A stretch of DNA of 64,000 nt from an uncultured cyanobacterium (GCA_963744145.1 CAVUSO010000001.1:320001-384000), one strand, 5' to 3'; positions 7,807 through 59,116 are shown, counted from the stretch's first letter. Notes: generated from the letters alone by a model not told the origin. A program made the numbers and translations.

Positions 7807-7904
7807 AATTAGGAGAAAATTGATGTTTTCGTTGAAATAAGTGCCAGAATTAAGCTTAATACTGAAATTGTTATATTTTACAGTTTACAAGTCTTTACGC
7901 GAGA
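7807..7904 (-). repeat. Conserved GUN4 3' element, copy 1
   Basis: Sense strand TCTCGCGTAAAGACTTGTAAACTGTAAAATATAACAATTTCAG...AAGCTTAATTCTGGCACTTATTTCAACGAAAACATC aligns with the copies at 9582, 17316 and 58993. Confidence 0.85.
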
Positions 7905-9377
7905 AAAAAACTGATAGATCGTACAGGACTGATCCAACAAATTACCCCACGCATAAAAATTCCCTACCCCCCATATACCCCACCATCCCCAACTTGCCGC
8001 AGCGGGGAGGTGACCAAAACGTGCGAATGCGGTGCTAAATGTTAGGTCACTATAGTCCAACCATTTTTCTCCTTTCTTCCATCCTACTTTTATAGCAAAT
8101 TTACGTTTTATTACGCTATCTGCATTTGGATGTCCACCAACATCTTTACTCTCCCATATCTGTTTTTGAACGCTAAACCCAAAACGACCATCAGAGTATT
8201 TCATCCATAACTGATCTATAGTGCGAAAGTCTTTACAGGGAAATTTTAACCAATCATCACCAGTGAGATATCTTTCTTTTGTATTAGCAGCTCTAAGTAC
8301 AAGATCATAAGTTTTTTGATCAGCCTCTTTCCATAACCTATCAGCTAATAAGTTACAGAGATGAGTGTAATCTATATCTCTTTCACTTTCAAGAATAATT
8401 TGAGTTTGTCCAGATACTGGTGATTGGGAAAATTGTGCGTTAGGCGTTGATATATTGGGTATTGACTGACGTACTTGTTTGTTAGGTACTGATTTAGAAC
8501 TAAGCATTTGCAATACTTCACTAGCAGACTGATAGCGATCGCCCAAAGTAACCGATATCATTTTATCTAAGATCATCGCTAAATCATTATTAATATTGAC
8601 TAGCGATCGCCATACCCATTTCATTTGATAAAAGTCAAACAGTTTATCGACATAATTACCGTTTTGTTCTTCTAATAAACAACCCGTCAAAAGTCTAATA
8701 CAAGTAACACCTAAACTATATAAATCACTAGCGGGAAAAGCATGACCCTGTAGTTGTTCTGGAGCTGCGTAACCAGGAGTACCAATATTTGTACCTGCTC
8801 TTGTAAGAACAGTACCCGTAAGTTGCTTGGATACTCCAAAGTCAATTAACATCAAACGATTATTGGCATCTCTAATAATATTATCTGGTTTAATATCTCT
8901 ATGAATTACATTCTTTTGATGCAGAAACTCTAAAACAGGTAGAAGTTGATTTAATAAATTCCTAATCTTTTCTTCATCAAATCTGCCGTTCTGTTGTAAT
9001 TCCTTCAATAAATCTTTTCCATCAATGAACTCTTGTACTAAATATAACCGTCCATCCTGTTCAAAAAATGCTAGCAAATCTGGTATTTGGGGATGTTTAC
9101 CTAAATCTTTTAATCTGACAGCTTCTTGTTTAAATAATTCTGTAGCTTTTTGTAATGCACTACCACCTTGCAACTGAGGTAGAAATTGTTTAATCACACA
9201 GAATGTGCCCAGTCGTTGTTCGTCTATTGATTTGAATGTTCTCCCAAAACCACCCTCTCCGAGAAATTCTACTGCTCGATAGCGATCGCCCAGTAACAAC
9301 CTATTACCGCAGCGCACACAAAACTTTGTCCCAGATGGGTTGATATTCTCACACTCAGGGTTTAGACATAAGCTCAT
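7878..9377 (-). CDS. Ser/Thr protein kinase with N-terminal Cys4 zinc ribbon and C-terminal GUN4-like domain
   Basis: CLNPEC..CVRC, GEGGFG, HRDIKPDN, DFG, APE; GUN4 motifs IDQLW..YSDGRFGFSVQKQIW and GHLP. Confidence 0.93.
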   Translation of the reverse strand: MSLCLNPECENINPSGTKFCVRCGNRLLLGDRYRAVEFLGEGGFGRTFKSIDEQRLGTFCVIKQFLPQLQGGSALQKATELFKQEAVRLKDLGKHPQIPDLLAFFEQDGRLYLVQEFIDGKDLLKELQQNGRFDEEKIRNLLNQLLPVLEFLHQKNVIHRDIKPDNIIRDANNRLMLIDFGVSKQLTGTVLTRAGTNIGTPGYAAPEQLQGHAFPASDLYSLGVTCIRLLTGCLLEEQNGNYVDKLFDFYQMKWVWRSLVNINNDLAMILDKMISVTLGDRYQSASEVLQMLSSKSVPNKQVRQSIPNISTPNAQFSQSPVSGQTQIILESERDIDYTHLCNLLADRLWKEADQKTYDLVLRAANTKERYLTGDDWLKFPCKDFRTIDQLWMKYSDGRFGFSVQKQIWESKDVGGHPNADSVIKRKFAIKVGWKKGEKWLDYSDLTFSTAFARFGHLPAAASWGWWGIWGVGNFYAWGNLLDQSCTIYQFFSRVKTCKL

Positions 9378-9581
9378 AACTTGTCAATAATCCACAGGTT
9401 TCGTGTATAAATAATAGCGGACAGTTAGCCCAAATGTCCAGTGAGGTGTCTTGTTACGGTGTGTTAAGCATTTTGTAGGCGATCGCTTAGATTGTGCGAG
9501 GTTTGATTGTGGGTTGATTAGAGGGCGATAGCTTTGGTTAGGTTTGGGGAGTGCGATCGCATATTTAGAATGATGTTATTC

Positions 9582-9707
9582 TTAGCTTCTGTGTCAGGTA
9601 TTGAGTTAGGGAAAAGCTGATTTTTTCGTAGAAATTAGTACCAAATTTAAGCTTGACAAATGACATGAAATTTTTATAACTCACAGGTTACAAGTCTTTG
9701 CGGAAGA
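9582..9707 (-). repeat. Conserved GUN4 3' element, copy 2
   Basis: CGCAAAGACTTGTAACCTGTGAGTTATAAAAATTTCA...TGTCAAGCTTAAATTTGGTACTAATTTCTACG...AACTCAATACCTGACAC. Confidence 0.85.
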
Positions 9708-11877
9708 TAAGAAACCAACCAGTCAGCTTATTCCGCAAATACGGACTACAATTCCCAAAAAGACCGGAAACGCCTGCCGGGAGGTGGCCAAGTGGAGCGG
9801 TAGTGTTCAAGGTTAGGTCATTATCGTTCAACCAATTGCCTCCTTTTCTCCATCCTACTTTATCAGCAAATTTATGTATTATTTCATAACCTGCATCAGG
9901 ATGTCCACCAACATCTTTACTTTCCCAGATTTGTTTTTGAACGCTAAACCCAAAATGACCATCAGAGTATTTAATCCATAACTGATCTATTGTGCGAAGG
10001 TCTTTATAGGGAAACTTTAACCAATCGTCATCATTGAGATATTGTCCATTTTCACAATTAGCAGCTTTGAGTACAACCCTATAAGTTTCTTCATCAGCTT
10101 CTTTCCATTTACCAACAGCTAATAAGTCACGGAGAAGACTGTAATCTATTTCTATTTCACTCTCAAGAATAAGCTCTAGTTGCATTTTACAGTTTGCAAG
10201 TCTTTGTGCGAGAAAAGATGGTTTCAACCCTCCAAATCCCTCACGCCCCACATCTCCTGTGCCCCCAATCCACTGTTCCGGTAATATAATACCTACACAA
10301 GGGAAGTGGCCTATAGGTGCATCGGTATTAAATGTAAGATTGTTATAATCTAACCACTTTCCTCCTTTTCTCCATCCTACTGTATCACCAAATTTACGTT
10401 CTATCTCTATTTCTTCTTCTATTCCTGCGTTTGGATTTCCACCAACAGTTTTACTTTCCCAGATTTGTTTTTGGACACTATATCCAAAACGACCATCAGA
10501 ATATTTTACCCATAGCTGATCTATGGTACGAAGGTCTTTACAGGGAAACTTTAACCAATCATCACCATTGAGATATCCGTCTTTTTCACGATTAGCAGAT
10601 TCAAGTAAAAGATGGTAAGTTTTTTCATCAGCATCTTTCCAGTAACCAGCAGCTAATAAGTTTCTAAGAGGAATGTAATCTATATCTCTTTCACTGTCTA
10701 GAATAAGTTCTGCTGCTGTTATATTTTGTTGTGGTGACGATGATATTACTTCAATTTGGTTTTGTGGATGTGATGTTAATTCTATTACTGGCTTCATGTC
10801 TTGATTTATTGTTTCATTTAATTCAGTAATAATCCTTTGCTGAATTTTTTCTACATCTGCATCACGTAAACATAAATGAACACTAGCCCATTCCTCTAAT
10901 TCTTTAATAACTTTATCATCTAAAGGATAATTTTTAGAAATTTTTTGTCTATATTCTTCTTCATAACGTTTTAAGCTTTCGTGATATAATTGATGATGCT
11001 TTATAACACTACTTATTATTTCTTCAGCTTGCTCATCAGAAAGCTGTAAGTTCTCTTGTTTTGTTTTTAAAATATCACGATTAAGCTTAGATATTTCTCC
11101 ATCTTTAATTCGCATTTCAACTTCCTGACAAAATCTTTTCTCAGGGGTAGGAGCCATACTTATCAAAATATTATATCCTTCATTATCTAGAATAATTTTA
11201 GGCTCCATTTTGGGCTTGACTTCCTTGACTTTTGCTTTGGCATATTTATGTAATTCTTGGATATGAATTTTACCATCACCATCTGTATCAGCAGCACCAG
11301 TTTCAATACCTTCTACTAGATGCTTTGTATAAACCGATAATTCAGAGCCTTCATGTTGAAATGAAGTCTGATTTTTTGAGGAAGAAGCTAGTATTACTCT
11401 TCCCTCTGCACCTAATTCTTTATCTAATAAATCAATATCTATACCTTTAGGTTGCCAACCAATCGCAAAAGCACCGCTATAACAACAGTCTAAAATAATT
11501 ATTTGACGCTTTGCATAGTTACCATGCTTTGACATTTTTTGGATGAAACTAGCTGAAGCAGCAGTGGCTAGGAAATTATTTTTTGTGGTAATCCGAGTTG
11601 CTAGATAAAGTTGACCATCATCGTCTTTAATACCATGTCCAGAAAAAAATAGTAGAATTAAATCATCTTTATTACTACTTTGAAATAGTTTTTGAATTTC
11701 TTCAGTCATCTGAAGGTATTCGGGATTAATTAAAAAATTAACACTATCAAACCCTCCCATTTCAGGATTTTCTAATACCCGTTTCATTGCCTTTACATCA
11801 TTAGGTGGTGCAGATAAAGGATTAATGTCTTCTCCATATTCGCTAACACCTATTAGTAATGCTATTTTTTTAGGCAT
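9688..11877 (-). CDS. Caspase-family (peptidase C14) protein with two tandem C-terminal GUN4-like domains
   Basis: KIALLIGVSEY, FSGHG and DCCYSG (His/Cys dyad intact); two GUN4 repeats. Confidence 0.9.
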   Translation of the reverse strand: MPKKIALLIGVSEYGEDINPLSAPPNDVKAMKRVLENPEMGGFDSVNFLINPEYLQMTEEIQKLFQSSNKDDLILLFFSGHGIKDDDGQLYLATRITTKNNFLATAASASFIQKMSKHGNYAKRQIIILDCCYSGAFAIGWQPKGIDIDLLDKELGAEGRVILASSSKNQTSFQHEGSELSVYTKHLVEGIETGAADTDGDGKIHIQELHKYAKAKVKEVKPKMEPKIILDNEGYNILISMAPTPEKRFCQEVEMRIKDGEISKLNRDILKTKQENLQLSDEQAEEIISSVIKHHQLYHESLKRYEEEYRQKISKNYPLDDKVIKELEEWASVHLCLRDADVEKIQQRIITELNETINQDMKPVIELTSHPQNQIEVISSSPQQNITAAELILDSERDIDYIPLRNLLAAGYWKDADEKTYHLLLESANREKDGYLNGDDWLKFPCKDLRTIDQLWVKYSDGRFGYSVQKQIWESKTVGGNPNAGIEEEIEIERKFGDTVGWRKGGKWLDYNNLTFNTDAPIGHFPCVGIILPEQWIGGTGDVGREGFGGLKPSFLAQRLANCKMQLELILESEIEIDYSLLRDLLAVGKWKEADEETYRVVLKAANCENGQYLNDDDWLKFPYKDLRTIDQLWIKYSDGHFGFSVQKQIWESKDVGGHPDAGYEIIHKFADKVGWRKGGNWLNDNDLTLNTTAPLGHLPAGVSGLFGNCSPYLRNKLTGWFLIFRKDL

Positions 11878-12612: not shown

Positions 12613-13515
12613 TCAAAGGCTAAATATTCTCTCATCAGTTAATACCTGCATAGATTGTCTTTTCTCCAAATTTTTCCAATGTTTCATAGCTTCTTTATAA
12701 CGCTCTTTTAATGCGCTTGCATCAGGTTTATTACAGTTATGCTTATTTAATTTTAAGAATGTATTATCATATTGCTGATAATGGCTTTTTTCTAAGCTAG
12801 GATGGATATGAATTTTTTTATTTTCATCAATTGCTATAAGATGAGCATCAAAAAGCTTATGAATATCAACACAAAGAAGCAATCCATTAGAAGGATCATT
12901 GTTTTGGTTTTTTTCGTAAGGCTCTATATGAGCAGCTTCTAAAAGTATTTGAATATCAGAATCAGTAATTAGACAACGATAATTATACAAATTTAACAAT
13001 TGTAGGCGGAATTTATACTGTCCTAGTCTATTAGCTAGTCTATTAGATTTAGATTGTATAAAATTTATAACATAAGGATCTGAAATAATAGCTCGATTAA
13101 GTTTCGCAAATTGAAGCTTTGCGTATTGAAAATTAGTTGATGGAAAAATAGAAAGCTGGCCATAATTTAGCTTCTCGTGATGTTTATTCAAGTAAGTTGT
13201 ATCCAACATCTTTAAGTCTATATATCCTAACTCTGCATAATCAAAAACTGCATCGTACAAATTCATTCCTTCAAAATTTGCATATTGAAGGTTTGCTCCT
13301 TCAAAGTTTGTTCCATCCAATTCAGATCCTCGAAAGTCAGCATTTTGAAGTTCTGCCCCTCGAAAGCTAGCATATTCAAGATTAGCACCCCGGAAATCTA
13401 CACCATTAAGAATCAAATGATCCAAAATTAGGTGATTTAAATCTACCGCTCGAAAATCTCGTTGCCCGTTTTCGTACTGAGCCTTAATTTTATCAATATC
13501 CATATTATGTATCAT
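12613..13515 (-). CDS. Pentapeptide-repeat protein fused to an HNH endonuclease
   Basis: A(D/N)FRG/ANFEG repeats; GQYKFR..LL..Y..RCLIT...LEAAHI..NGLLL..DIHKLFD. Confidence 0.85.
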   Translation of the reverse strand: MIHNMDIDKIKAQYENGQRDFRAVDLNHLILDHLILNGVDFRGANLEYASFRGAELQNADFRGSELDGTNFEGANLQYANFEGMNLYDAVFDYAELGYIDLKMLDTTYLNKHHEKLNYGQLSIFPSTNFQYAKLQFAKLNRAIISDPYVINFIQSKSNRLANRLGQYKFRLQLLNLYNYRCLITDSDIQILLEAAHIEPYEKNQNNDPSNGLLLCVDIHKLFDAHLIAIDENKKIHIHPSLEKSHYQQYDNTFLKLNKHNCNKPDASALKERYKEAMKHWKNLEKRQSMQVLTDERIFSL

Positions 13516-13617: not shown

Positions 13618-14685
13618 CAGAAGTTACGCAGTTGAACTGGGGATGTGGTAAAAAAAGATCATGAATCCACCTAAATCCACGCCCCTCGAATACATTAACT
13701 TCCTGATTGCGGCAAAAGGCATACAGTTGTAGCGAAGCCGAGCGTGTTCAACCAATCGCAGAAAACCGAGCAGCCCACGATGCGACTTGTGTTGAGCGTA
13801 GTCGAAACATTAACCGTTTGCTGCATCGAAGGTCACCAGACCCCAATGAATTCTGGCAGGAAGCCAAAGACTATGTTGAGTTAAACCAAGGGGTTCTGGT
13901 CATTGATGATACAATGCTTGACAAGTGGTATGCCAAAAAGATGGAGTTGGTCAGTCGGCAATGGTCAGGGAAGCATAAACGTGTTGTCCAAGGCATCAAT
14001 CTGACTACCCTATTATGGTCAGATGGGGATAAACATATCCCATTAGACTATCGACTTTATGAGAAAGAAGTGGACGGGGCTACCAAAATGACCACTTTCG
14101 AGCCATGTTGCTTAATGCCCATGCCAGAGGCTTTCATGCCCAGTGTGTAGCAATTGAATAGTTGGTTTAGTTCTTTGGCCAATTTGAAATTAATTGCTAG
14201 TTATAGCTGGACTTGGTTGACTCGACTGAAATCTAATCGATTGGTAAATGCGGATCATACCGAAAACCGACCAATTAGGGAGGTAGCGTTAGCCCAAACG
14301 GGCACAGTAGTTCATCTGAAAGGTTATGGGTTCATTAAAGTATTCAAGATTGTTGCCCCAGACGGTGACATTGACTACTGGGCGACCAATGACTTACAGA
14401 TGAGCAGCTTAAAACGTTTACAGTGGGCGGAATTTGAATGGTCAATTGAGGAATATCATCGAGGTCTAAAGCAATGCTGTGGCGTGGAAAGATCCCAAGT
14501 TCGGTCGGCTCGCGCAAGGGCGTAATCACATTGGTTTGGCAATTCGGGCCTTTCTCCGTTTGGAGATGCACTGGTTTAACACTGGCATCAGTTGGTATGA
14601 GTCCAAAATTAGTATTGTGCGTGAAGCAGTCCGCTCTTACTTAGAGGCCCATTGGCTGTCTCTCCCGTCAACTGCGTAAGTCCTG
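13618..14685 (+). mobile_element. IS701-family insertion sequence (1068 bp)
   Basis: 18-bp terminal inverted repeats CAGAAGTTACGCAGTTGA / TCAACTGCGTAAGTCCTG; 5-bp target duplication ACCAT (13613-13617, 14686-14690); DDE transposase remnants. Confidence 0.9.
13661..14679 (+). pseudogene. IS701-family transposase, multiply frameshifted
   Basis: MNPPKS..YINFLIA start at 13661; motifs VIDDT, WSGKH, IEEYHRGLKQ and RNHIGLAIRAF are spread over several reading frames. Confidence 0.88.
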
Positions 14686-17248: not shown

Positions 17249-17315
17249 CAAAAGCATTTAAAGTAACTAGGTATTAGTTATTGTCGCAAAATGTAAGCGA
17301 ATTATTGCCTATAAG

Positions 17316-17419
17316 CATTAGAGAAAATTTGATATTTTTGTAGTAATTAGTACCAAATTTTAGCTTGGCAAATGGCATGAAGTTGTTAGAGCTTAAAGGT
17401 TACAAGTCTTGGCGCGAGA
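17316..17419 (-). repeat. Conserved GUN4 3' element, copy 3
   Basis: TCTCGCGCCAAGACTTGTAACCTTTAAGCTCTAACAACTTCA...GCCAAGCTAAAATTTGGTACTAATTACTACAAAAATATC. Confidence 0.85.
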
Positions 17420-18818
17420 AAAGATCCGCGCAAAACCCCCAGAACCCTCCACCATCTACTATTACCACTACACCAAGGGCCCGCGCGGGAAGGTGGCCAG
17501 AAAGAGCAGTGATGTTAAATGTTAGATTACTATAGTCTAACCAGTTTCCTCCTTTTCTCCATCCTAATTTATCAGCAAATTTGTAATACGTATTCCAATC
17601 TGCATTAGGATGTCCACTAACACCCTGACTTTCCCAGATTTGTTTTTGAACGCTAAACCCAAAACGACCATTAGAATATTTTACCCATAACTTATCTATG
17701 GTGCGAAGGTCTTTACATGGAAACTTTAACCAATCATCACCAGTGAGATATTCCTCTTGTTCACGATTAGCAGCTTTAAGTACAAGATGATAAGTTTTCT
17801 TGTCAGCTTCTTTCCATTTTCTAGTAGCTAATAAGTCACGGAGAGGAGTGTAATCTATTCCTTTTTCACTTTCAAGATTATCTTGATTTTGTGGAGCTAT
17901 TGGTTGTGAAGAAAACTCGGTTTTAGGTATTGATTTAGAACTAAGTGCTTGCAATATTTCACTAGCAGATTGATAGCGATCACCCAAAGGAACCGATATC
18001 ATTTTATCTAAAAAAACACCCAAATCATTGCTAACACTAGCATATTGTCGCCACACCCATTTCATCTTATAAAAATCAAACAACTTATCTATATTGTTGC
18101 CATTTTGTTCTTCTAATAAACAACCTGTTAAAAGTCTAATACAAGTAACACCTAAACTATATAAATCACTAGCGGGAAAAGTTTGACCCTGTAATTGTTC
18201 TGGAGCTGTATAACCAGGAGTACCAACTGATGTACCCACTCTTGTCATTACAGTACCGCTTAATTGCTTGGATACACCAAAATCAATTAACATTAAACGA
18301 TTATTAGCATCTCTAATAATATTCTCAGGTTTAATATCTCTGTGAATTACATTATTTTTATGAATAAATTCTAAAACAGGTAGAAGTTGATTTAATAAAT
18401 TTTTAATTTTTTCCTCATTAAATTTGCTGTTTTGTTGTAGTTCCTTTAATAAATCTTGTCCGTCAATAAATTCTTGTACTAAATATAGCCGTCTATCTTG
18501 TTCAAAGAATGCTAATAAGTCAGGTATTTGGGGATGTTTACCTAAGTCCCTTAATCTGACAGCTTCTTGTTTAAATAATTCTGTAGCTTTCTGTAATGCT
18601 CCACTACCTTGCAACTGAGGTAGAAATTGTTTAATCACACAGAATGTGCCCAGTCGTTGCTCGTCTATTGATTTGAATGTTCTCCCAAAACCACCCTCAC
18701 CGAGAAATTGTACTGCTCGATAGCGATCGCCCAGTAACAACCTATTACCGCAGCGCACACAAAACTTTGTCCCAGATGGGTTGATATTCTCACACTCAGG
18801 GTTTAGACATAAGCTCAT
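17400..18818 (-). CDS. Ser/Thr protein kinase-GUN4, paralog of 7878..9377
   Basis: Near-identical N-terminus and kinase domain; different linker and C-terminal tip. Confidence 0.93.
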   Translation of the reverse strand: MSLCLNPECENINPSGTKFCVRCGNRLLLGDRYRAVQFLGEGGFGRTFKSIDEQRLGTFCVIKQFLPQLQGSGALQKATELFKQEAVRLRDLGKHPQIPDLLAFFEQDRRLYLVQEFIDGQDLLKELQQNSKFNEEKIKNLLNQLLPVLEFIHKNNVIHRDIKPENIIRDANNRLMLIDFGVSKQLSGTVMTRVGTSVGTPGYTAPEQLQGQTFPASDLYSLGVTCIRLLTGCLLEEQNGNNIDKLFDFYKMKWVWRQYASVSNDLGVFLDKMISVPLGDRYQSASEILQALSSKSIPKTEFSSQPIAPQNQDNLESEKGIDYTPLRDLLATRKWKEADKKTYHLVLKAANREQEEYLTGDDWLKFPCKDLRTIDKLWVKYSNGRFGFSVQKQIWESQGVSGHPNADWNTYYKFADKLGWRKGGNWLDYSNLTFNITALSGHLPARALGVVVIVDGGGFWGFCADLFSRQDL

Positions 18819-39055: not shown

Positions 39056-39162
39056 TGATTGAAAGAAAAATTTGGTGAATAAAAACCATCTGATAAAACT
39101 TTCAGGTGTTGAGTCAATATTGACCTTAAGTCCTGAAAGATATTTGTGAAGCGCTCATTTCT

Positions 39163-39927
39163 CTATTGCTGAATTTCAGCAATTTTGACAGGGGTAATCC
39201 CAACTTGCTTGAGCAAAGCGTTGAGGGTATTTAAAGCTTCTGTTTCTCCTGGATTGGCAATATGAACCTGATAAAGGGCTGATACTGCATCTATCCAGAT
39301 CCCTGACTGTGCATAAATTAATGCCCGATCAGCATCAGATCTAGCTGTAGCTATTTTTTGATTTAAGTCAGGTGAAGGGTGAACCCGTTCGATCCATGCA
39401 CGCGCGTAGATATTTTCTGAAGGACGCTTGTCACTACAAATTAAAGCTACTGTCCAGCGATATTCTTTACCTACAGCTAATTCGGGAATATTCGCTGGTA
39501 CTTCTAGTTTAACAATTCCAGGTTTGTCAGCTTTGACTTGTTGCGTAAAAATCGGCTTAGGTTTTCCTGGTTCTACCAAAGTAAATACCATTGATGCTGT
39601 TGTACCGTTCGATAGGTGCCAAAGAAATGTTGGATAAGCTGAGACAGTTTGGGCAATATGATCATTAGGTGTTAGCAGGTTTAATGATACGGGAATTGAG
39701 TTGGTACAACCTCTAGCACCACTTCCTTCTGTTCTTTGGGGACGACCTCGATCAGTGGGAGGAACATATTGAGCTATCTCAACTGCGTTAGCTACAGTTT
39801 CATCACTCTTGATTGAAAAATCATTGCTTAATGAGATATTCACTGGGCCATTAAGTACCGTTAATACACTTATTACGCTTCCTAATGCTATTCTCATCAT
39901 GCTAGATACCCGATTAAATTTATTCAC
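39163..39927 (-). CDS. DUF928 domain protein (paralog)
   Basis: RTEGSGARGC, YPTFLWH, YRWTVALIC, GIWIDA. Confidence 0.88.
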   Translation of the reverse strand: MNKFNRVSSMMRIALGSVISVLTVLNGPVNISLSNDFSIKSDETVANAVEIAQYVPPTDRGRPQRTEGSGARGCTNSIPVSLNLLTPNDHIAQTVSAYPTFLWHLSNGTTASMVFTLVEPGKPKPIFTQQVKADKPGIVKLEVPANIPELAVGKEYRWTVALICSDKRPSENIYARAWIERVHPSPDLNQKIATARSDADRALIYAQSGIWIDAVSALYQVHIANPGETEALNTLNALLKQVGITPVKIAEIQQ

Positions 39928-40080
39928 GAAACCAATCCTCCCTTATTATCTTTATGTCTTAATTTCACATTGGCATTTTTTTTTAATAATGGCAAGCATT
40001 TCCCGAACATATTTACTAAAAATTTATAAAACGCCAAATACCGTTTACCGTTCGGTAGGTGCCAAAGAAACGGATGAAGA

Positions 40081-40113
40081 AAATATTTCACAAATATTTC
40101 ACAAATATTTCAC
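40081..40113. repeat. Three perfect 11-bp direct repeats AAATATTTCAC in a divergent intergenic region
   Basis: Direct reading of the sequence. Confidence 0.8.
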
Positions 40114-40310
40114 AATATATATTCAAATGATTGATGAATTTGTTTTCTTAATAAATCTTTAAAATTAATTGAGATAACAATAAATAACCCCCAATCTAAA
40201 AAATATGAGTTCGACGAGCTAGAATATTGGTAAAATTGAGTATTCTCATCAATCAAGTAGCATTAATCAAAGTCAAGTTATTTACTATCTTGAGATCAGG
40301 CAAAAAATTA

Positions 40311-42781: not shown

Positions 42782-42870
42782 CTAGCATTTAGCTAAATTG
42801 TCTGAGATTTTTGGGAAAATTGAGTACAATGATTAATTAAACAGAAAAATATAGTTTTTGTTAAAAATTC

Positions 42871-45330: not shown

Positions 45331-45376
45331 CTTAGAGTTTAGCTTAAACAAAAGCTGTATTTTTTGCTAAAAATCA

Positions 45377-47902: not shown

Positions 47903-47991
47903 CTAGCATTTAGCTAAATTGTCTGAGATTTTTGGGAAAATTGAGTACAATGATTAATTAAACAGAAAAATATAGTTTTTGTTAAAAATTC

Positions 47992-50439
47992 ATGAAAATC
48001 TGGCAAATAGTAGCATATTTAGAATTAGCCAACTTACTTGTCGCTCCCTCCGTACTAGCCCAAATAGTACTCGATCGCACCGTGGGAACTACCGTAACGC
48101 CAAATTTAACCATTAATGGGATATTGAGCGATCGCATCGATAACGGAACAATCCGAGGGAGCAACTTATTTCACAGCTTTCAAGAATTCAATATCGGGTC
48201 AGGACAGGGCGTATATTTTAGCAACCCAGCAGGAATCACCAACATTTTTAGCCGAATTACAGGTAATAATTCCTCTCAGATCAATGGCACCTTGGGAGTA
48301 TTAGGTAATGCTAATCTATACTTACTCAATCCCAACGGCATACTTTTTGGTCAGAATGCGCGACTTGACCTCAAAGGGTCATTTTTGGCGACCACCGCTA
48401 ATCAAATTAACTTCACCGATGGGACTGTTTTTAGTGCTACTCATCCTCAGACATCGACCTTGCTTACTATCAATGTGCCAGTTGGGTTGCAATTTGGCAG
48501 CAATCCGAGTCCCATTACTGTTCTAGGAATTGGGAATAATATCACTTTAACCTCAAGCTTGGGTGATTCCAGATTAAATATTGATATTGGTTCAAACGGT
48601 TTACAGGTACAACCTCAAAAAACCCTCGCGTTAGTTGGTGGGAATATAGCCCTAAACGGAGGGTTACTCTCTGCACCAGGAGGACAAATTGATTTAGGAA
48701 GCGTCACCGGAGGAATCGTCGCTCTCAATCCAAACCCTCAAGGATGGATATTAAGCTATGGAAGTGCTTCCAACTTTGGTAATATTAAAATGACCCAAAG
48801 AGCCTTAGCTTCTGTAGTTGAAAGCAATACAGGATTAAATTTAGGTGCTGTCCAAATCCAGGGAGAACAAGTTAACATCCAGGATGGCTCATTAGTAGCG
48901 GTACAAAATCAAAGCAATCAAACGGCAGGTGATATCAATATCAATGCTAAAGTGTCACTCCAGGTGATTGGTAAATCAGCAGATTTTAGCAGTAGCACCG
49001 GTGTAGTGAATGAAACCATATCTACAGGTGCAGCAGGTAAGATTACAATTAATACTCCACAGTTAACTGTTACTCAAGGTGCCCAAATCTTCAACCGAAG
49101 CTTTAGTTTAGGAAAAGGTGGAGATATTATATTGAATATTGGGGATCAGTTACAGGTAGGTGATATTGCACCTAACGATCCACATAATACAACCAGTGCT
49201 ATTTTCACCAATAACTATGGTGCTGGTAATGGAGGCAATCTATTTCTCTCTGCTCCACATATATTAATCTTTAAAGGTGGTGGTATAGGAACTAGACCCT
49301 TTGGTCAAGGGAATGGTGGTAATGTGACCGTCAAGGCGGATACTATTCAAGTGACAAGTTTGGGCGCACCCAAGGGTTTATCTTTTAGTTTGCTAGCCAC
49401 TTCAACTTTCGGTCCAGGTCCTTCTGGTAATGAAACAATCGACACAAGCACCCTCTCAATCCAAGATGGTGGATTTGTATCAGCTTCTAGCTTTGGTACA
49501 GGAAATTCAGGTACTGTCACCGTTAATGCGTCTGAATTAATCGAGTTGAGTGGTATTAAAGACGCACAAAACCCAAGTTATATTGGCGCTGTAGTTCGCG
49601 GTTTTTTTGGTCTAACTACCTCTCCTGCCAATTCAGGCAATGTCATCATTAATACTCCTACTCTGAATATTAGCAATGGTGCAACGGTCTTTGTTCAAAA
49701 TCAAGGTCTTGGTAATGCTGGTAGTTTGAGTATTAATGCTGGCACCATCCAACTGGATCATGGGGGAAGCATCTCCGCATCTACAAGATCGGGGGAAGGG
49801 GGAAATATTAACCTTCAGGTTGAAGATTTGCAAATACGTCATGGTAGTTTCATTAGTGCACAAGCGGGTGGTAGTGGTAATGGTGGTAATGTCAGGATCA
49901 ATGCTCCTGTGATTGTGGGATTAGAAAACAGTGATATTACTGCCAATGCACTCAAAGGTCGGGGTGGTAATATTTCAATTGCTACCCAAGGCATTTTTCT
50001 TTCCCCCGATAGCAACATTACTGCTTCTTCCCAACTAGGTATTAGTGGTACTGTCAAGATCTCCAATCCTAATTTGCAACGGCAAAATGTTTTAGTTCTT
50101 TCTACTCCTAACTTTGCCAGTCAAGAGCAGGTGCTAACTAGCAATTGCTTGACTCGTCGCAACAGCAAACAGGGCACCTTTGTGGTTACAGGTAATGGTG
50201 GTTTACCAGAAACACCTGATCATAGCTTGATTCCCTATGATGTGATTCAGGTGAGGGCTGTGCATGAAGGCAGATCAATCGGCAATAGAAAACTACCACC
50301 AGCGATCGCGAATTCCTGGCATTCTGGAGACTTAATTCAAGAAGCAACCGGATTGGCGTTTACCTCAGATGGCAAAGCTACACTTGTTGCTAATCCAAAC
50401 CAGGCATTGTCCCCTGATTCTTTGATCTGTTTTCAATAA
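47992..50439 (+). CDS. Filamentous haemagglutinin/TPS protein, copy 4
   Basis: Same motifs as copy 2. Confidence 0.92.
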   Translation: MKIWQIVAYLELANLLVAPSVLAQIVLDRTVGTTVTPNLTINGILSDRIDNGTIRGSNLFHSFQEFNIGSGQGVYFSNPAGITNIFSRITGNNSSQINGTLGVLGNANLYLLNPNGILFGQNARLDLKGSFLATTANQINFTDGTVFSATHPQTSTLLTINVPVGLQFGSNPSPITVLGIGNNITLTSSLGDSRLNIDIGSNGLQVQPQKTLALVGGNIALNGGLLSAPGGQIDLGSVTGGIVALNPNPQGWILSYGSASNFGNIKMTQRALASVVESNTGLNLGAVQIQGEQVNIQDGSLVAVQNQSNQTAGDININAKVSLQVIGKSADFSSSTGVVNETISTGAAGKITINTPQLTVTQGAQIFNRSFSLGKGGDIILNIGDQLQVGDIAPNDPHNTTSAIFTNNYGAGNGGNLFLSAPHILIFKGGGIGTRPFGQGNGGNVTVKADTIQVTSLGAPKGLSFSLLATSTFGPGPSGNETIDTSTLSIQDGGFVSASSFGTGNSGTVTVNASELIELSGIKDAQNPSYIGAVVRGFFGLTTSPANSGNVIINTPTLNISNGATVFVQNQGLGNAGSLSINAGTIQLDHGGSISASTRSGEGGNINLQVEDLQIRHGSFISAQAGGSGNGGNVRINAPVIVGLENSDITANALKGRGGNISIATQGIFLSPDSNITASSQLGISGTVKISNPNLQRQNVLVLSTPNFASQEQVLTSNCLTRRNSKQGTFVVTGNGGLPETPDHSLIPYDVIQVRAVHEGRSIGNRKLPPAIANSWHSGDLIQEATGLAFTSDGKATLVANPNQALSPDSLICFQ

Positions 50440-50485
50440 CTTAGAGTTTAGCTGAAACAAAAGCTGTATTTTTTGCTAAAAATTC

Positions 50486-52930
50486 ATGAAAATCTGGGAA
50501 ATAGTAGCATATTTGGGATTAAGCAACTTACTGGTCGCTCCCTCCGTACTAGGGCAAATCATACCCGATCGCACCGTAGGAACTACAGTAACACCAAATC
50601 TAACGATTAATGGGATATTGAGCGATCGCATTGATCACGGAACCATCCGAGGGAGCAACTTATTTCACAGTTTTCAAGAATTCAACATTGGAACGGGAAG
50701 GGGAGCTTATTTTACCAATCCAGCAGGAATCGTCAACATTTTTAGTCGGATTACAGGTAATAATTCTTCCCAGATCGATGGCACCTTGGGAGTGTTAGGT
50801 AATGCCAATCTATACTTACTCAATCCCAACGGCATACTTTTTGGTCAGAATGCACGACTTGATCTCAACGGGTCATTTCTAGCAACTACAGCGAATCAGA
50901 TTAACTTCACAGATGGGACTGTTTTTAGTGCTACCAATCCTCAGACATCTCCCTTACTCACCATTAGTGTACCAGTTGGTTTACAGTTTGGGAGCAACCC
51001 GGGTCCTATTACCGTTCTAGGGATCGGACAAAATATTAATTTAGGCTCCCCCCTTAGTCCTAAAAAATTGGATCTTAATATTGGTTCAACTGGATTACAG
51101 GTACAACCTCAAAAAACTCTAGTCTTAGTGGGTGGGAATCTAGCCCTAAATGGAGGGTTACTCTCTGCACCAGGAGGACGAATTGAGTTGGGGAGTGTGA
51201 TGGGAGGAACTGTTGCTCTTAATCCAAACCTGCAAGGGTGGACATTGAGTTATGGAAATGCTGACCACTTTGGCAATATTCAGATGACCCAAGGAGCTTT
51301 AGCTGCTGTAGTTGAAAGCAATACAGGGTTAAATGTAGGCGCTATCCAAATTCAGGGACAACAAGTCAACATCCAGGATGGTTCCTTAGTAGCGGTGCAA
51401 AATCAAGGTAACCAAACGGTCGGTGATATCAACATCAATGCTACAGAGTCACTCCATATTATTGGTAAATCAGCAGATTTTAGCACTCCCACTGCGGTAG
51501 TGGATGAAACCATATCTACAGGTACAGCAGGTAATATTACGATTAATACTCCACAATTGACTCTTGACCAAGGTGCCCAAGTCTACAGCCGAAGCTTTAG
51601 TTCAGGGAAAGGTGGTGACCTGATCCTAAACATTACAGATGAGTTGCAGGTAGGTGGTGTTGCCCCGCTCGATCCGCAGCAGATAGTCAGTTCTATCTTT
51701 ACCTATAACTATGAAGATGGTAACGGAGGTAATCTATTTATTTCCGCTCCACATATATTGATTTTTAATGGTGGTAATATAGGAGCTAGACCATTGGGTC
51801 AAGGAAATGGTGGTAATTTAACAGTCAAGGCAGATACTATTCAAGTGACAAGTGCAGGAGCGCCTCCTGGTATATTTTTTAGTGCGCTAACCGCTTCAAG
51901 CTTAGGTCAAGGTCATTCCGGTAATGAAACAATCGACACAAACACCCTCTCAATCCAAGATGGCGGAGTGGTGTCAGCTTCTAGCTTTGGTACAGGAAAT
52001 TCAGGTACTGTCACCATCAATGCGTCTGAATTAGTTGAGTTGAGTGGAACTAAAGACGCACTCCCAAGTTATATTGGTGCTGTAGTTCGCAGTTTTTTTG
52101 GTCAAACTACCTCTCCTGCTAATTCAGGTAATATCATAATTAATACTCCTACTCTGAATATTAGCAATGGTGCAACAGTCTTTGTTCAAAACCAAGGTCT
52201 TGGTAATGCGGGTAGTTTGAGTATTAATGCTGGCACAATCCAACTTGATCATGGGGGAAGCATCTCCGCATCTACACAATCAGGGGAAGGGGGAAATATT
52301 AACCTCCAGGTTCAAGATTTGCAGATGCGTCATGGTAGTTTCATTAGTGCAGAAGCGGGTGGTAGTGGTAATGGCGGTAATATTAATATCAATGCTTCTG
52401 TGATTGGGGGATTAGAAAACAGTGATATTACTGCCAATGCAGTCAACGGTCGGGGTGGTAATATTTTAATTGAGAGCCAAGGTATTTTTCTTTCGACCGA
52501 TAGCAACATTACTGCTTCTTCCCAACTAGGGATTAGTGGTACTATTCATGTATCTAACCCTAACTTACAACGGCAAAATGTTGTAGTTCTTTCTACCTCT
52601 AATTTTTCCAACCAAGAACAGGTATTAGCTAGCAATTGTTTGACTCGTCGCAACAGTCAACAGGGAACTTTTGTAGTTACAGGTAACGGTGGTTTACCAG
52701 AAACACCTGATCATAGCTTGATTCCCTATGATGTACTTCAGGTGAGAGCTGTGCATGAAGGCAGATCAATCGGCAATAGAAAACTACCACAAGCGATCGC
52801 TAATTCCTGGCATTCTAGAGACTTAATTCAAGAAGCAACCGGATTTGCGTTTACCTCAGATGGCAAAGTTACACTTGTCGCTCATCCAAACCAGGTATCA
52901 ACCCCGGATTCTTTGATCTGTTTTTGGTAA
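50486..52930 (+). CDS. Filamentous haemagglutinin/TPS protein, copy 5
   Basis: Same motifs as copy 2. Confidence 0.92.
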   Translation: MKIWEIVAYLGLSNLLVAPSVLGQIIPDRTVGTTVTPNLTINGILSDRIDHGTIRGSNLFHSFQEFNIGTGRGAYFTNPAGIVNIFSRITGNNSSQIDGTLGVLGNANLYLLNPNGILFGQNARLDLNGSFLATTANQINFTDGTVFSATNPQTSPLLTISVPVGLQFGSNPGPITVLGIGQNINLGSPLSPKKLDLNIGSTGLQVQPQKTLVLVGGNLALNGGLLSAPGGRIELGSVMGGTVALNPNLQGWTLSYGNADHFGNIQMTQGALAAVVESNTGLNVGAIQIQGQQVNIQDGSLVAVQNQGNQTVGDININATESLHIIGKSADFSTPTAVVDETISTGTAGNITINTPQLTLDQGAQVYSRSFSSGKGGDLILNITDELQVGGVAPLDPQQIVSSIFTYNYEDGNGGNLFISAPHILIFNGGNIGARPLGQGNGGNLTVKADTIQVTSAGAPPGIFFSALTASSLGQGHSGNETIDTNTLSIQDGGVVSASSFGTGNSGTVTINASELVELSGTKDALPSYIGAVVRSFFGQTTSPANSGNIIINTPTLNISNGATVFVQNQGLGNAGSLSINAGTIQLDHGGSISASTQSGEGGNINLQVQDLQMRHGSFISAEAGGSGNGGNININASVIGGLENSDITANAVNGRGGNILIESQGIFLSTDSNITASSQLGISGTIHVSNPNLQRQNVVVLSTSNFSNQEQVLASNCLTRRNSQQGTFVVTGNGGLPETPDHSLIPYDVLQVRAVHEGRSIGNRKLPQAIANSWHSRDLIQEATGFAFTSDGKVTLVAHPNQVSTPDSLICFW

Positions 52931-56005: not shown

Positions 56006-56620
56006 CTAGTAACTAATTTCACTATCAACAAAGTCAATATTTTCGTACAGGAGCGAGAGGGGAAATTTTAGGTCTATACTGGTGATGTGAATTAATGGAT
56101 CGTTTTGAGCAAATTCGGTCGGCTCGATCGCTATTGGTGTATATTGCCAAACCTGATCTCTACGGTTTTGATAAATCTCAATTTTGGGGTAATCTGGAGT
56201 AATGAGAATATAGGTTTGGAGGGTATCAAGAAGCATATAATTTTGTTGTTTAATGTTGCGATCGCGCATTTCAGTAGATGGAGAAATTACTTCAGCAATC
56301 AAGCAGGGATATTGCAAAAAATCCCGAGCATTGCGATCGCGATCGTCACAACTAACCACTACATCGGGATAGTAATATTTGCCTTTTGGTATGCTAACTT
56401 TTGCATCATTGACAGCAACTTTGCAACCTTTACCGCGTAGATGAGGAATTAGAATTGCGGAAAAGTTTGCTGGAATTTGGCTGTGAGGAACAGTTCCACC
56501 TGTCATGGCAATAATTTTGCCGTTTTCATACTCATATCTAATATCTTGCTCAGATTCCCAAGCGAGATATTCTGCGGGTGACATGGTGATCGGATGAACG
56601 CTTTGTGTTTGGGCAATCAT
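56006..56620 (-). CDS. Uma2-family (DUF820) endonuclease
   Basis: EYLAWE..YEYENG.IIAMTGGT..H, YYPDVVV, IAEVISPST..DR..K. Confidence 0.9.
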   Translation of the reverse strand: MIAQTQSVHPITMSPAEYLAWESEQDIRYEYENGKIIAMTGGTVPHSQIPANFSAILIPHLRGKGCKVAVNDAKVSIPKGKYYYPDVVVSCDDRDRNARDFLQYPCLIAEVISPSTEMRDRNIKQQNYMLLDTLQTYILITPDYPKIEIYQNRRDQVWQYTPIAIEPTEFAQNDPLIHITSIDLKFPLSLLYENIDFVDSEISY

Positions 56621-56711
56621 GAAATTAACCTCCTCAATTTACAATACTAAACTTTTTTTATAAACTAGTAATCTATCAACCCAAGTTTCTCCTGTATTGG
56701 GAATAACTAAT

Positions 56712-57305
56712 TTAGCGATCGGCAAAGTTAATATTTTCGTACAGGAGCGAGAGGGGAAATTTTAGGTCTATACTGGTGATGTGAATTAATGGATCGTTTT
56801 GAGCAAATTCGGTCGGCTCGATCGCTATTGGTGTATATTGCCAAACCTGATCTATACAGCGTTGGTAAATCTCTATTATAGGAGCATCTGGAGTAATGAT
56901 AATATAGGTTTGGAGGGTATCAATAAACAGATAATTTTGTTGTTTAATGCTGCGATCGCGTATTTCAGTAGATGGAGAAATTACTTCGGCAATCAAGCAA
57001 GGATATTGCAAAAAGTCCTGGGCATTGCGATCGCGATCGTCACAACTAACAACTACATCAGGATAATAATATACTCCGGTTTTTGTCATCAGTTTAGCAT
57101 CGCTACCGAGAATGCGATATCCTTTACCGCGCAAATGATTTCTCAATAAGGAAATAAACATCAGAGTAATTTCATTGTGATTCAGCGTTCCTCCTGTCAT
57201 TTCAATAATTTCTCCATGTTCGTACTCATATTTGCCATCCTGTTGTGTTTCCCACAGCAAATATTCTTCGGGAGACATAACCTCAGTTTTTACTATAGCA
57301 ACCAT
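56712..57305 (-). CDS. Uma2-family endonuclease (tandem paralog)
   Basis: Same motifs; C-terminal half almost identical to 56006..56620. Confidence 0.9.
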   Translation of the reverse strand: MVAIVKTEVMSPEEYLLWETQQDGKYEYEHGEIIEMTGGTLNHNEITLMFISLLRNHLRGKGYRILGSDAKLMTKTGVYYYPDVVVSCDDRDRNAQDFLQYPCLIAEVISPSTEIRDRSIKQQNYLFIDTLQTYIIITPDAPIIEIYQRCIDQVWQYTPIAIEPTEFAQNDPLIHITSIDLKFPLSLLYENINFADR

Positions 57306-57708: not shown

Positions 57709-58134
57709 TTAAGAGTTAGGGTCATCACTTCCCCAGATTGTCTGAATAACAGACAGCGCTCTAATTTTGCGATCTTTTGTTACTAAAGGCAAACCGAGAT
57801 ATAGAGCGGTCGCTGCAATAATGCGATCGCCCATTTCGGGAACCGTCAACCGAGGAATTTTAGCTAAAGTCCTAGCCACCAAAACATCCACTGGTATAAC
57901 TATTAACCCAACATCAGGATCAGCTAGGTATTGCACAAGCTGTTCTAAAGCAACTTCAGGAATCCTGTTTTTCTCAACTAGATAGGTTATTTCTACCATA
58001 GAGATTGCTGACAGGTAAATCGGATACCCATTATTAACCGCACTATTCAGAGCGATCGCAGCATCCAGTGATAATTTCTCTGGACTTTGGAAATACTAGA
58101 TAATCGCATGAGTATCAGCAACAACAGCACTCAT
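57709..58134 (-). pseudogene. PIN-domain (VapC-like) toxin with a nonsense codon at position 13
   Basis: MSAVVADTHAII*YFQSPEKLS...SAISMVEI...DRIIAATA..LVTKD; TAG at 58096-58098. Confidence 0.85.
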
Positions 58135-58370
58135 AGTTCAATATCCTTGGGAAAATTTCCCCACATCTCACGTCTTGTTTCAGCAAGTTCTTCTTCAGTA
58201 ATATTTATATCTAAATGTGCCCATATTCCTTCTAAACTCTTCCGAGGTCGTTTAACATTAATTCTAGTTTTCAAAAACTCCGCAAAATCCAAAAGTTCCT
58301 GTTGTTTTTCTGGTGGCAATACTTCTAATATTTCAACTACTGTCTGACTAATACTGGTAATCACAGTCAT
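58131..58370 (-). CDS. DUF2281-family antitoxin
   Basis: LPPEKQQELLDFAEFL..SLEGIWA..REMW; overlaps the PIN start; likely start MTVITS at 58370. Confidence 0.8.
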   Translation of the reverse strand: MTVITSISQTVVEILEVLPPEKQQELLDFAEFLKTRINVKRPRKSLEGIWAHLDINITEEELAETRREMWGNFPKDIEL

Positions 58371-58529
58371 TTTGTTAATCCTCCTTGGCTGATCAAATTT
58401 GATTTGCCCCAATTTGTTAATCATCAATCGAGGGAACAGGCGAGATATCCATTCCTTATTTAGATTGTAGCAACAAATCTAAATTTTCACCATTTAAGAT
58501 CCCAACCAGAATACTCATTAATTCTCTGA

Positions 58530-59012
58530 GATCATCAGGAACACGGTATAAATGCAAATCTTGCACTACAAAGTGAAAGAAATATAGATTACGCTCCTCT
58601 ACGTGAATTATTAGCTGCTGGTAAATGGAAAGATGCTGATTGGAAAACTTATGAGCTTGTACTTAAAGCTGCTAATCGTGAAAAAGAAAGATATCTCACT
58701 GGTGATGATTGGGTAAAATTTCCCTGTAAATATCTTCGCACTATAGATCAGTTATGGGTAAAATATTCTGATGGTCGTTTTGGTTTCAGCGTCCAAAAAC
58801 AAATATGGGAGAGTAAGGAAATTGGAGGATATCCCAAGGCTGGAAGTGCGATCAAGCGCAAATTGGGTGATAAAGTAGGGTGGAGAAAAGGAGGCAATTG
58901 GTTGAGCTATGATGACCTAACTTTTAACACCTCGGCTCCCGTGGGCCACCTTCCGTTGTTGGGGGGTTGGTGGGTTTGGGGGGGGTCTCTTCTCTCGCGC
59001 AAAGACTTGTAA
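58530..59012 (+). pseudogene. Start-less GUN4-like domain cassette (160 open codons), missed by the ORF track
   Basis: Frame is open from the TGA at 58527 to the TAA at 59010: ..LQSERNIDYAPLRELLAAGKWKDAD..IDQLWVKYSDGRFGFSVQKQIW..GHLPLLGGWWVWGGSLLSRKDL*; no in-frame ATG. Confidence 0.88.
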
Positions 59013-59116
59013 CCTGTAAGATATAACAATTTCAGGCCATTGTCAAGCTTATTTTTGGTACTAATTTCTACGCAAACATCGGCTTTTTCCAAACTCAATA
59101 CCTGGCACTGACCTAG
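58993..59116 (+). repeat. Conserved GUN4 3' element, copy 4
   Basis: TCTCGCGCAAAGACTTGTAACCTGTAAGATATAACAATTTCAGGCCATTGTCAAGCTTATTTTTGGTACTAATTTCTACGCAAACATC..AACTCAATACCTGGCAC. Confidence 0.88.

Follow-up and report, generated by a model that had tools for sequence, protein, structure and literature searches.

One DNA block translated in three reading frames follows hypervariable segments of cyanobacterial GUN4-like domains

A stretch of 64,000 nucleotides (nt) from an uncultured cyanobacterium (GCA_963744145.1, CAVUSO010000001.1:320001-384000; the whole stretch is called the window) encodes five similar GUN4-like domains, each of which ends in a segment of variable length and sequence followed by a conserved DNA block of about 42 nt. 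Three "different" C-terminal motifs found at the ends of such domains are translations of this one DNA block in its three reading frames. The architecture is real and apparently undescribed. In the explanation that we regard as probable, the variable segment is the lid of a GUN4 pocket that the tri-frame block makes tolerant of frameshifts, the conserved tail beyond the block is the relic of a transposase gene, and the changes in the segment come from slippage and duplication together with gene conversion or transposition. Thousands of cyanobacterial kinase, caspase, protease and NTPase proteins have a GUN4-like domain as their C-terminal sensor (the protein search described below scored 2676 homologues). 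If the favoured explanation is true, alignment, annotation and modelling of GUN4 proteins must treat the three motifs as one block, the family would offer a natural gene built for frameshift tolerance, in which a binding-site loop evolves by insertions and deletions (indels), and a conserved, supposedly selfish Y1 transposase family would be tied to one specific gene end.

The five copies are named c1, c2b (internal), c2a (terminal), c4 and c5, and their variable segments begin directly after the codons of a GHLP or GHFP motif. On the minus strand, the c1 gene (7878-9377) joins a Ser/Thr kinase to a GUN4-like domain (Pkinase 1.4e-44, GUN4 3.3e-34); GHLP is encoded at 8004-8015, the variable segment spans 7905-8003 (99 nt, 37 G), the block 7870-7914 (AGACTTG from 7894) and the tail, the most diverged of the four terminal tails, 7784-7869. 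The c2 gene (9688-11877, minus strand) encodes a caspase (Peptidase_C14, "EACC1-associated type") followed by the tandem domains c2b and c2a. In c2b, GHFP codons at 10300-10311 precede a segment of 86 nt (10214-10299) and a block at 10179-10213; in c2a, GHLP codons at 9778-9789 precede a segment of 70 nt (9708-9777), and block and tail occupy 9589-9717, with AGACTTG at 9697 and the tail end CAATACCTGACACAG at 9589-9603. A second Ser/Thr kinase gene, c4 (17400-18818, minus strand), has GHLP codons at 17487-17498, a segment of 67 nt with 29 G (17420-17486), and block and tail at 17300-17429 (AGACTTG at 17409). The last copy, c5, is an orphan domain on the plus strand (58530-59012), open from stop to stop, with neither a start codon nor an N-terminal partner, and located between unrelated genes; it matches Thermosynechococcus GUN4 (1Z3X) at E 9.8e-21. 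Its GHLP codons (58944-58955) are followed by a segment of only 37 nt (58956-58992) made of G, T and three C, with 20 G, no A and a run of 8 G, then by the block (58983-59029) and a tail (59030-59110) that ends in CAATACCTGGCACTG at 59096-59110. The preliminary description of this DNA, made from the sequence alone, had placed the domains behind kinase and caspase domains, which is correct for c1, c2 and c4 and fails for c5.

Both boundaries of the segments are sharply defined. The left one, GGYCACYTYCC, occurs five times in the window against 0.15 expected. On the right, four matches to the 27-nt block core have three or fewer mismatches, 100 shuffles yielded none, and the fifth copy (17400-17427) is more diverged and still alignable. 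Segment lengths (99, 70, 86, 67 and 37 nt for c1, c2a, c2b, c4 and c5) leave remainders of 0, 1, 2, 1 and 1 on division by three. Pairwise identity among the five copies is 74-80% in the GUN4 domain and 62-82% in the block, and falls to 15-43% in the variable segment. The tails of the four terminal copies are 58-85% identical from +25 to +110, where conservation ends sharply; DNA past +110 is 14-33% identical, which is the level of the variable segments, so that the segments align no better than unrelated DNA, with conserved sequence on both sides of them. The coordinates, lengths and G counts of the preliminary description are exact, and the divergence that it reported between the GHLP codons and the block is reproduced. 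It had also described the block and tail as a conserved cis element with a non-coding tail. The conservation is real; however, the block is largely coding, since five open reading frames (ORFs) enter it and either stop inside or, in c2b, read through, with three frames in use, and the tail is the flank and relic of a transposase gene, as set out below.

The block (TTCTCTTCTCTCGCGTCGAGACTTGTAAACTGTAACATTTAA and variants) is made of 7-nt steps (TTGTAAA CTGTAAC ATxTAAx), and this spacing places one TAA in each frame. Frame A reads LFSRVETCKL, frame B SSLASRLVNCNI (also given as FSSLASRLVNCNI) and frame C SLLSRRDL, and each reading ends at its own TAA, 7 nt from the next. Every frame thus offers hydrophobic residues, Ser-Arg, a short helix and a stop, a combination (hydrophobic-Ser-Arg and a stop in three frames) that appeared in none of 50,000 shuffled 42-mers. 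In the window, c1 ends FFSRVKTCKL in frame A at the second block TAA (7878-7880; the others lie at 7885-7887 and 7871-7873). The terminal copies c2a, c4 and c5 end R(K/Q)DL in frame C: c2a in IFRKDL (stop 9688-9690), c4 in DLFSRQDL (stop 17400-17402) and c5 in SLLSRKDL. In c5, all three frames are intact, reading GGVSSLAQRLVTCKI, GGSLLSRKDL and GGLFSRAKTCNL up to TAA codons at 59010-59012, 59017-59019 and 59024-59026. The internal c2b block is read in frame B (SFLAQRLANCKMQ; AQRLANCKMQ); its first and third TAA have become CAA, and the next GUN4 domain begins immediately. We infer that the block evolved so that each frame yields a helix after hydrophobic residues and Ser-Arg, and then a stop, and tri-frame coding of a similar C-terminal helix can explain its conservation on its own. 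Among homologues, the tandem GUN4 proteins P0005, P0007, P0008, P0010, P0032, P0110 and P0121 also read through the inner block, and continue into a conserved linker, CKLFPVQERQPQIIPTPQPVNQEVQL, before the next domain; the conservation of this linker suggests that it is part of the repeated unit.

The same organization extends throughout the family. The homologues come from a protein search in which the query was the GUN4 portion of the c4 gene (17400-18818), and among the 118 listed from outside the window, 29 end in frame A (LFSRVETCKL), 30 in frame B (SSLASRLVNCNI) and 30 in frame C (LLSRRDL). The remainder comprise 9 scored as "other" and 20 that lack a match to the GHLP pattern, many of which still belong to A, B or C by eye; one homologue scored as A is really B. 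The listed homologues share one layout, with a stretch of very different lengths and sequences after GHLP and one of these three endings behind it. A DNA scan of species-representative genomes for AGACTTGTAAMCTGTAA, from which the L-numbered loci below derive, found at least 121 stretches. Of the 80 matches listed with titles, 66 are cyanobacterial loci from many orders, and the other 14 are chance matches in other phyla. A GH[LFIVMY]P motif lies within 330 nt upstream in at least 75 loci among the matches listed, and the block is entered in frame B in 31, frame A in 30 and frame C in 14. Sixteen further loci include 7 with long GUN4 ORFs that carry AHLP, GILP or GQLP; the remaining ones are short, interrupted or truncated where a contig ends. 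Classes A (15 loci), B (20) and C (7) have the same 17 nt ahead of the search pattern, a stretch on which the pattern imposed no selection, and the unused third TAA is retained in 11 of 15 class A and 6 of 7 class C loci. The hot spot with two fixed boundaries proposed from the window, distinct from a diversity-generating retroelement (DGR), is therefore a family-wide observation. Across the cyanobacteria, the domains stand behind kinase, caspase, trypsin, CHAT, AAA and WD40 modules.

Structural comparison places the segment at a ligand pocket. GHLP aligns with G205-P208 of Synechocystis GUN4 (1Y6I). In this protein, Verdecia et al. 2005 (PMC1084334) place L207-L210 in the α6/α7 loop, which covers the "greasy palm" and moves when porphyrin binds; they propose R214 and R217, where the loop ends, as partners of the porphyrin carboxylates, and helix α7 starts at V218. 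AlphaFold2 models of c1 (frame A, a 180-residue construct) and c4 (frame C, 166 residues) have a confident core, with a mean predicted local distance difference test score (pLDDT) of 83-89. Confidence drops below 50 in the variable part (residues 141-163 of c1 and 145-151 of c4) and returns in a terminal helix (166-177 and 156-161), where the mean over the block is 94 and 87, respectively. By Foldseek, the c1 model matches porphyrin-bound Synechocystis GUN4 (4XKC) with a TMq of 0.72 over 178 columns (E 6e-7). Because GHLP corresponds to residues 205-208 of the α6/α7 loop, the segment is predicted to be the distal part of that loop, a flexible lid over a putative tetrapyrrole pocket, and the models suggest that the block encodes the hinge arginine and helix α7. 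The ligand-pocket location suggested in the preliminary description is thus supported and narrowed to the distal α6/α7 loop. Canonical GUN4 proteins (Synechocystis 1Y6I and 4XKC, Thermosynechococcus 1Z3X) share this fold, with GHLP in the α6/α7 loop followed by an arginine-bearing hinge and a helix; in Synechocystis, the gap from P208 to R217 is only 8 residues and is followed by α7 and α8. In contrast, the gap in the window family is variable and far longer in most copies, a single short terminal helix follows it, and the domain is fused behind effector and signalling modules.

The composition of the segments is a property of the DNA rather than of the codons. Across 58 loci, the segments contain A, C, G and T at.195,.123,.364 and.317, so that G+T makes up about 68% against.50 in the GUN4 domain; the window as a whole has 19.6% G and 38.9% G+C. 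The bias does not differ among the three codon positions (G.38 and T.34 at the third), with no codon periodicity, and extends the G-richness noted in the window to a strand-biased excess of G+T that is not codon-driven. Lengths range from 19 to 195 nt and are not tied to multiples of three. Words of the GGGGTT/TTGGGG type and runs of G are present, the latter longer than that of c5 in, for example, L079 and L030; the GHLP boundary is tandemly duplicated within the segments of L010, L034, L088, L103, L118, L101 and L117; and one plasmid copy contains a (GTC)5 run. A count of 13 of the 58 segments open in all frames was set aside, as it is biased by the requirement for an open frame 0.

An ordinary DGR, or ordinary divergence of a protein loop with no feature at the DNA level, is very improbable as an account of these segments. 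The kinase and caspase chassis is common among cyanobacterial DGR targets, as Vallota-Eastman et al. 2020 (PMC7517822) describe, and the systems are alike in placing a variable 3' stretch on kinase- or caspase-type signalling or conflict genes, a conserved DNA element downstream, and a ligand-binding sensor at the C-terminus. However, no reverse transcriptase (RVT family) was found among the 40 of 45 window ORFs of at least 100 amino acids that were scanned, and blastn-short searches with five segments against the window and four against a 146-kb plasmid returned self matches only, so that, in the DNA searched, there is neither a second segment copy nor a template. Unlike DGR targets, the segments are free in length (37-99 nt in the window, and the wider range given above, not in multiples of three), have no adenine-specific pattern, belong to a GUN4 rather than a C-type lectin fold, and adjoin a Y1/HUH transposase gene rather than one for a reverse transcriptase. 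Plain protein-level divergence accords with the frequent observation that loops diverge fastest among paralogues, and is ruled out by the use of one block in three frames and by a segment without codon periodicity.

In the favoured explanation, indels of any size are tolerated in the segment, as the 42 nt that come next supply the last helix and a stop in all frames. The block would let the lid gain or lose bases while the last helix, the arginine and the stop are kept, and indels lethal to an ordinary gene would stay viable there. Such viability would make lid turnover several-fold faster than that of the flanks and different in every paralogue. The changes themselves most likely come from replication slippage and local duplication in a stretch rich in G runs, and gene conversion or transposition would homogenize both flanks and spare the heterologous middle. 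Simple-sequence contingency loci are comparable in their G runs (8 in c5), in carrying cryptic simple sequence in a reading frame, and in indels that shift the frame. They differ in that a frameshift in the GUN4 genes would leave the gene on, since whichever frame results, the block would supply a stop and a C-terminus much like the others, and in that change is seen here between paralogues and species, not (yet) within populations.

Turnover of the segments is clearest among paralogues on one plasmid, NZ_CP060823.1. Across the first ~300 nt of block and tail, its four modules share 98-100% identity, and the three that have a full transposase gene remain 98-100% identical over 900-1000 nt downstream, whereas their GUN4 domains are 82-98% identical over ~350 nt. 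The segments between these flanks (36, 68, 42 and 85 nt) cannot be aligned, and they lead into the block in frames A, B, A and C, respectively. The repeated unit begins at the start of the GUN4 domain and ends ~20 nt upstream of the transposase ATG, and no near-identical unit was found in other plasmids. A hot spot among paralogues, with flanks 96-100% identical around unrelated segments, is supported on this plasmid. Twelve candidate orthologous pairs were chosen by upstream identity; nine were dropped for want of a common downstream context, and in the three kept, the segments are 14-60% identical between flanks that are mostly 78-100% identical. In L034 and L038, from two Nodularia species, most upstream 50-nt windows are 88-98% identical, save for an indel inside the GUN4 domain, the block and tail are 94-96% identical, and most downstream non-coding windows are 82-94% identical; the segment, at 52-60%, has indels and a trace of homology. 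L049/L050 and L031/L069 resemble this pair in that the segment is more diverged than its flanks. Diversification is thus seen both between paralogues and between species, and these comparisons show that the segments turn over by indel-rich change that is fast relative to the flanks.

Among closely similar proteins, the pattern is different. In three protein sets, heads 97-100% identical have identical tails, and one pair with heads 90% identical has 25 of 30 tail residues alike; two pairs with heads 91-92% identical have unrelated tails. The tail is more conserved than the head in P0059/71, P0005/10 and P0095/97, which suggests recombination between paralogues and not rewriting. The comparison of close loci is accordingly divided: the three candidate pairs diverge faster in the segment, but proteins with identical heads keep identical tails. 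The ongoing site-directed rewriting proposed in the preliminary description, whether by possible untemplated addition or by possible DNA capture, is not demonstrated; the identical tails and the gradual difference in the 90% pair count against it.

Downstream of the block, conservation extends to GATACCTGGCAC(T/C)G at about +110 and, in many loci, onward into a convergent ORF of about 255 codons. The protein of L039 matches Pfam Y1_Tnp (PF01797, E 2.2e-19), and the HuH (NHVH) and Tyr (YIHANP) motifs are present in full-length copies. The best NCBIfam model is "REP-associated tyrosine transposase" (RAYT; REP, repetitive extragenic palindrome) at 72.5 bits, under its cut-off of 80, and the IS200 (IS, insertion sequence) model scores 24.8 against 55. 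In the window, a convergent relic of the 3' end of such a gene, about 50 codons long, lies beyond c5 at 59213-59365 on the minus strand. It aligns by tblastn to residues 226-248 of the intact L039 protein (E 3e-5), and its C-terminus, EIHQVAEKFVMANCYDPKVAAQFFNNS, is that of the intact genes in L011 and L032. What the tail preserves is the intergenic DNA beside a highly conserved, IS200-like Y1/HUH (RAYT-type) transposase gene in convergent orientation, together with the decayed 3' end of that gene. The preliminary description had seen no reverse transcriptase, recombinase or template in the window; the first and last were indeed not found in the DNA searched, but the Y1 relic is there.

Across cyanobacteria, this transposase gene occurs beside GUN4 gene ends, and it is intact in some copies outside the window. 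At 61 oriented loci with at least 1 kb of downstream sequence (3 of them chance loci), there are 9 full transposase genes, 17 remnants of the 3' end and 35 without either; the 26 copies are without exception convergent, at distances of 80-288 nt from the block. These loci were chosen by the block, and the census is hence blind to remnants that keep only the far end of the transposase. A search led by the transposase itself found it on 8 cyanobacterial plasmids, where 10 of 11 examined places face a gene or remnant that ends in a GUN4-like domain. CHAT, AAA-like, WD40, trypsin and MoxR-linked genes are the partners, and only a 5' fragment (L129) departs from the pattern. The transposase family has 844 members, the best 120 of which are 70-93% identical, and all organism-named ones among these are cyanobacterial. 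A link between GUN4 and a transposase was not found in the literature searched, supplements not covered, and the portions of Quentin 2018, Bertels 2017 and Kaur 2020 available make no mention of one.

The intergenic tail is alike in Microcystis, Pleurocapsa, Calothrix and the window, which is of Nostocales. Some tails contain an inverted repeat (CTGTAAC..GTTACAG) that is weak and imperfect. When six tails were folded as DNA, they were no more stable than shuffles (z 0.45, 0.79, 0.28, 1.94, -0.23 and -1.04), RNAalifold found no consensus structure in 58 block and tail sequences, a terminator scan of two tails found none, and Rfam gave no matches in the entire window at gathering thresholds. A possible antisense promoter (TTGACA-17-TATCTT) was rejected, being present in c5 only and not above the count in shuffles. 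A second transposon end was sought upstream of the transposase gene; about 130 nt with CTTAAGG-type repeats are common to L005, L039 and L059 only, and 8 other loci are without them. In the same three loci, the Y1 start is immediately preceded by tandem ~25-nt units with the palindrome CCTTAAGG at their core (CTTAAGGCTTAATGTTGTAACCTTAAGG), and this unit, which resembles a GCCTTAGATGTTACAG stretch on the other side of the transposase gene, might be the cognate repeat of the enzyme. In L012, L027, L033, L054, L071, L087, L108, L116, L119 and L121, the tail is replaced after ATTATTAAG (~+55) by a repeated element, TCTGAATCAGGATAACCAGGATTAAAGGAT; those with listed titles are from Dolichospermum, Anabaena, Trichormus and a Nostocales genome. 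Runs of an AGTCAAA heptamer follow the tail in L031, L042, L056, L059, L063 and L069.

An enzyme candidate for the process envisaged in the preliminary description thus exists, as the gene of a Y1/HUH transposase adjoins the block in relatives. The enzyme might nick single-stranded DNA at or beside the block, and repair or restart might then rewrite the stretch up to the GHLP codons by untemplated or locally templated, G/T-biased additions, either whenever a copy is made or continuously at a low rate. The tri-frame block would in that case be an adaptation that makes all outcomes productive, in a template-free counterpart of DGRs for GUN4-type sensors. We hold this account to be rather unlikely, though several observations are in keeping with it: the tie between the enzyme gene and the block on plasmids (10 of 11 places) and at loci (26 of 61, always convergent), the intact HUH and Tyr motifs of full copies within a family of 70-93% identity, the unrelated segments with sharp, fixed boundaries inside flanks 96-100% identical, the strand-specific, non-codon bias in composition, and the duplications of the left boundary inside segments. 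In addition, GUN4 holds the position that DGR-diversified FGS domains, of C-type lectin fold, occupy in sister systems, as described by Kaur et al. 2020 (PMC7159879). Against these stand the shared tails of proteins with heads 97-100% identical and the gradual difference of the 90% pair, the three protein pairs whose tails exceed their heads in conservation, which fits recombination, and the absence of an intact transposase from the window and of any nearby at 35 of 61 loci. Also, no stable hairpin of the kind that Y1 enzymes usually recognize was seen (z from -1.0 to +1.9), and no consensus structure. The known chemistry of IS200/IS605 elements is precise and leaves no additions, which likewise counts against this account. 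In its full form, a template-free diversity generator in which a domesticated Y1/HUH nick leads to G/T-biased rewriting of the lid at arbitrary length, with the tri-frame block and staggered stops keeping outcomes in frame, is unlikely. Were it true, kinase, caspase, trypsin, CHAT and NTPase effectors would carry a repertoire of sensors for tetrapyrroles or other ligands, a functional parallel to DGRs; and if the transposase is the driver, it would represent a new route to bacterial protein hypervariation. A comparison with V(D)J junctions is by analogy only: in both, G-rich junctions that differ in length join conserved coding flanks where a binding site has its tip, a transposase-derived activity is nearby and three frames are in use, but the GUN4 genes show no sign of somatic or programmed rearrangement, lack recombination signal sequences and are not homologous.

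The Y1 unit could alternatively be a passenger, an insertion sequence without effect on the segment that either targets the conserved, multi-copy block at GUN4 3' ends or is duplicated with it, with a tail conserved only because the element is young or spreading between genomes. The three plasmid copies that are 98-100% identical over ~1 kb beside GUN4 domains of only 82-98% identity are in keeping with such an element, as are the many decayed copies (17 partial ones and the window relic) and the orphan c5 module between unrelated genes. This account is nevertheless distinctly unlikely, given that the repeated unit stops just short of the transposase start with no second end or terminal hairpin seen, that no copy was found away from a GUN4 end, save for the 5' fragment in L129, and that the likeness of tails across Microcystis, Pleurocapsa, Calothrix and the window is hard to reconcile with mere youth. 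RAYT/REP systems (including REPINs) and IS200/IS605 elements resemble the unit in their Y1_Tnp protein of about 255 amino acids with NHVH and YIHANP motifs, the adjoining short conserved DNA element, and near-identical copies within one replicon (three full ones on NZ_CP060823.1). Unlike RAYT/REP systems, the protein scores below the NCBIfam cut-off, neither a high-copy extragenic palindrome nor a stable hairpin was seen, the element lies inside the end of a protein-coding gene, and there is one copy per GUN4 3' end, many of them decayed.

Several observations weigh against the favoured explanation of a frameshift-tolerant lid. Slippage alone poorly explains both the complete replacement of segments between copies with flanks 98% identical and segments that are not simple in sequence, such as g79906. 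The G+T bias is left unaccounted for, and off-frame stops in the segments are not depleted (70 and 68 against 62.5±7.6 and 60.6±7.2 in shuffles), so that there is no sign of selection for openness in all frames there. About 6 of 75 loci terminate inside the variable segment, before the block, and reaching the block is thus not obligatory. Nor is the block always intact in all frames: in c1, frame B contains a stop, and a variant on a Cylindrospermopsis plasmid has Ser-Arg in one frame only, the others reading FPPVKTCRV and LPSCQDM. The docking of the terminal helix in the manner of α7, and the equivalence of its arginine to R217, are suggested by position and model confidence, not by residue-level superposition, and the three candidate pairs are taken as orthologous from collinear flanks only.

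The remaining features of the window include a sixth, more distant GUN4-like domain (32614-33357, minus strand), which is N-terminal, precedes a hydrophobic extension rich in Gly and Cys, and lacks both block and tail. Together with c1, c2 and c4, it scores 118.5-252.4 bits against Pfam PF05419 (GUN4), for which the cut-off is 29.2. Its gene is immediately downstream of a CHAT gene, at the edge of a cluster (33430-52930) that comprises CHAT-TPR, a CHASE2 histidine kinase, two DUF928 genes, a short ORF with a TPS domain, a 583-amino-acid ORF without a Pfam match, and four tandem paralogues of ~815-840 amino acids with an N-terminal TPS secretion domain. A nif cluster occupies 15-7182, with nifU, nifS and nifB on the minus strand and a serine acetyltransferase-like gene, nifV (homocitrate synthase), nifZ and nifT on the plus strand, and the first GUN4 gene directly adjoins it; these nif genes suggest that the DNA comes from a heterocystous cyanobacterium. 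Between the caspase-GUN4 gene and the second kinase-GUN4 gene is a pentapeptide-repeat and HNH_2 endonuclease fusion (12613-13515, minus strand), next to a DDE_5 transposase that is spread over two ORFs (13707-14150 and 14154-14525) and is probably broken. A protein of 1980 amino acids (23432-29374) combines a Ser/Thr kinase, an AAA_16 NTPase, GAF, a histidine kinase and a receiver. The intervals 56006-57305, 62500-63063 and 57709-58478 contain three genes of the Uma2 family (putative restriction endonucleases) and, just upstream of the orphan c5 module, two small ORFs that form a likely toxin-antitoxin pair. Beyond the c1 tail (~7480-7800), ATCAGCCAATACAGTTCAGTTAACCGTAGGGGC occurs twice, ~230 nt apart, around the inverted repeat GGGGCAAAGCATTTCGG/CCGAAATGCTTTGCCC, and beyond the c5 tail (59406-59471) is a perfect 15-nt inverted repeat, GGGCGAAGCATTCGG/CCGAATGCTTCGCCC; these small repeats resemble miniature mobile elements.

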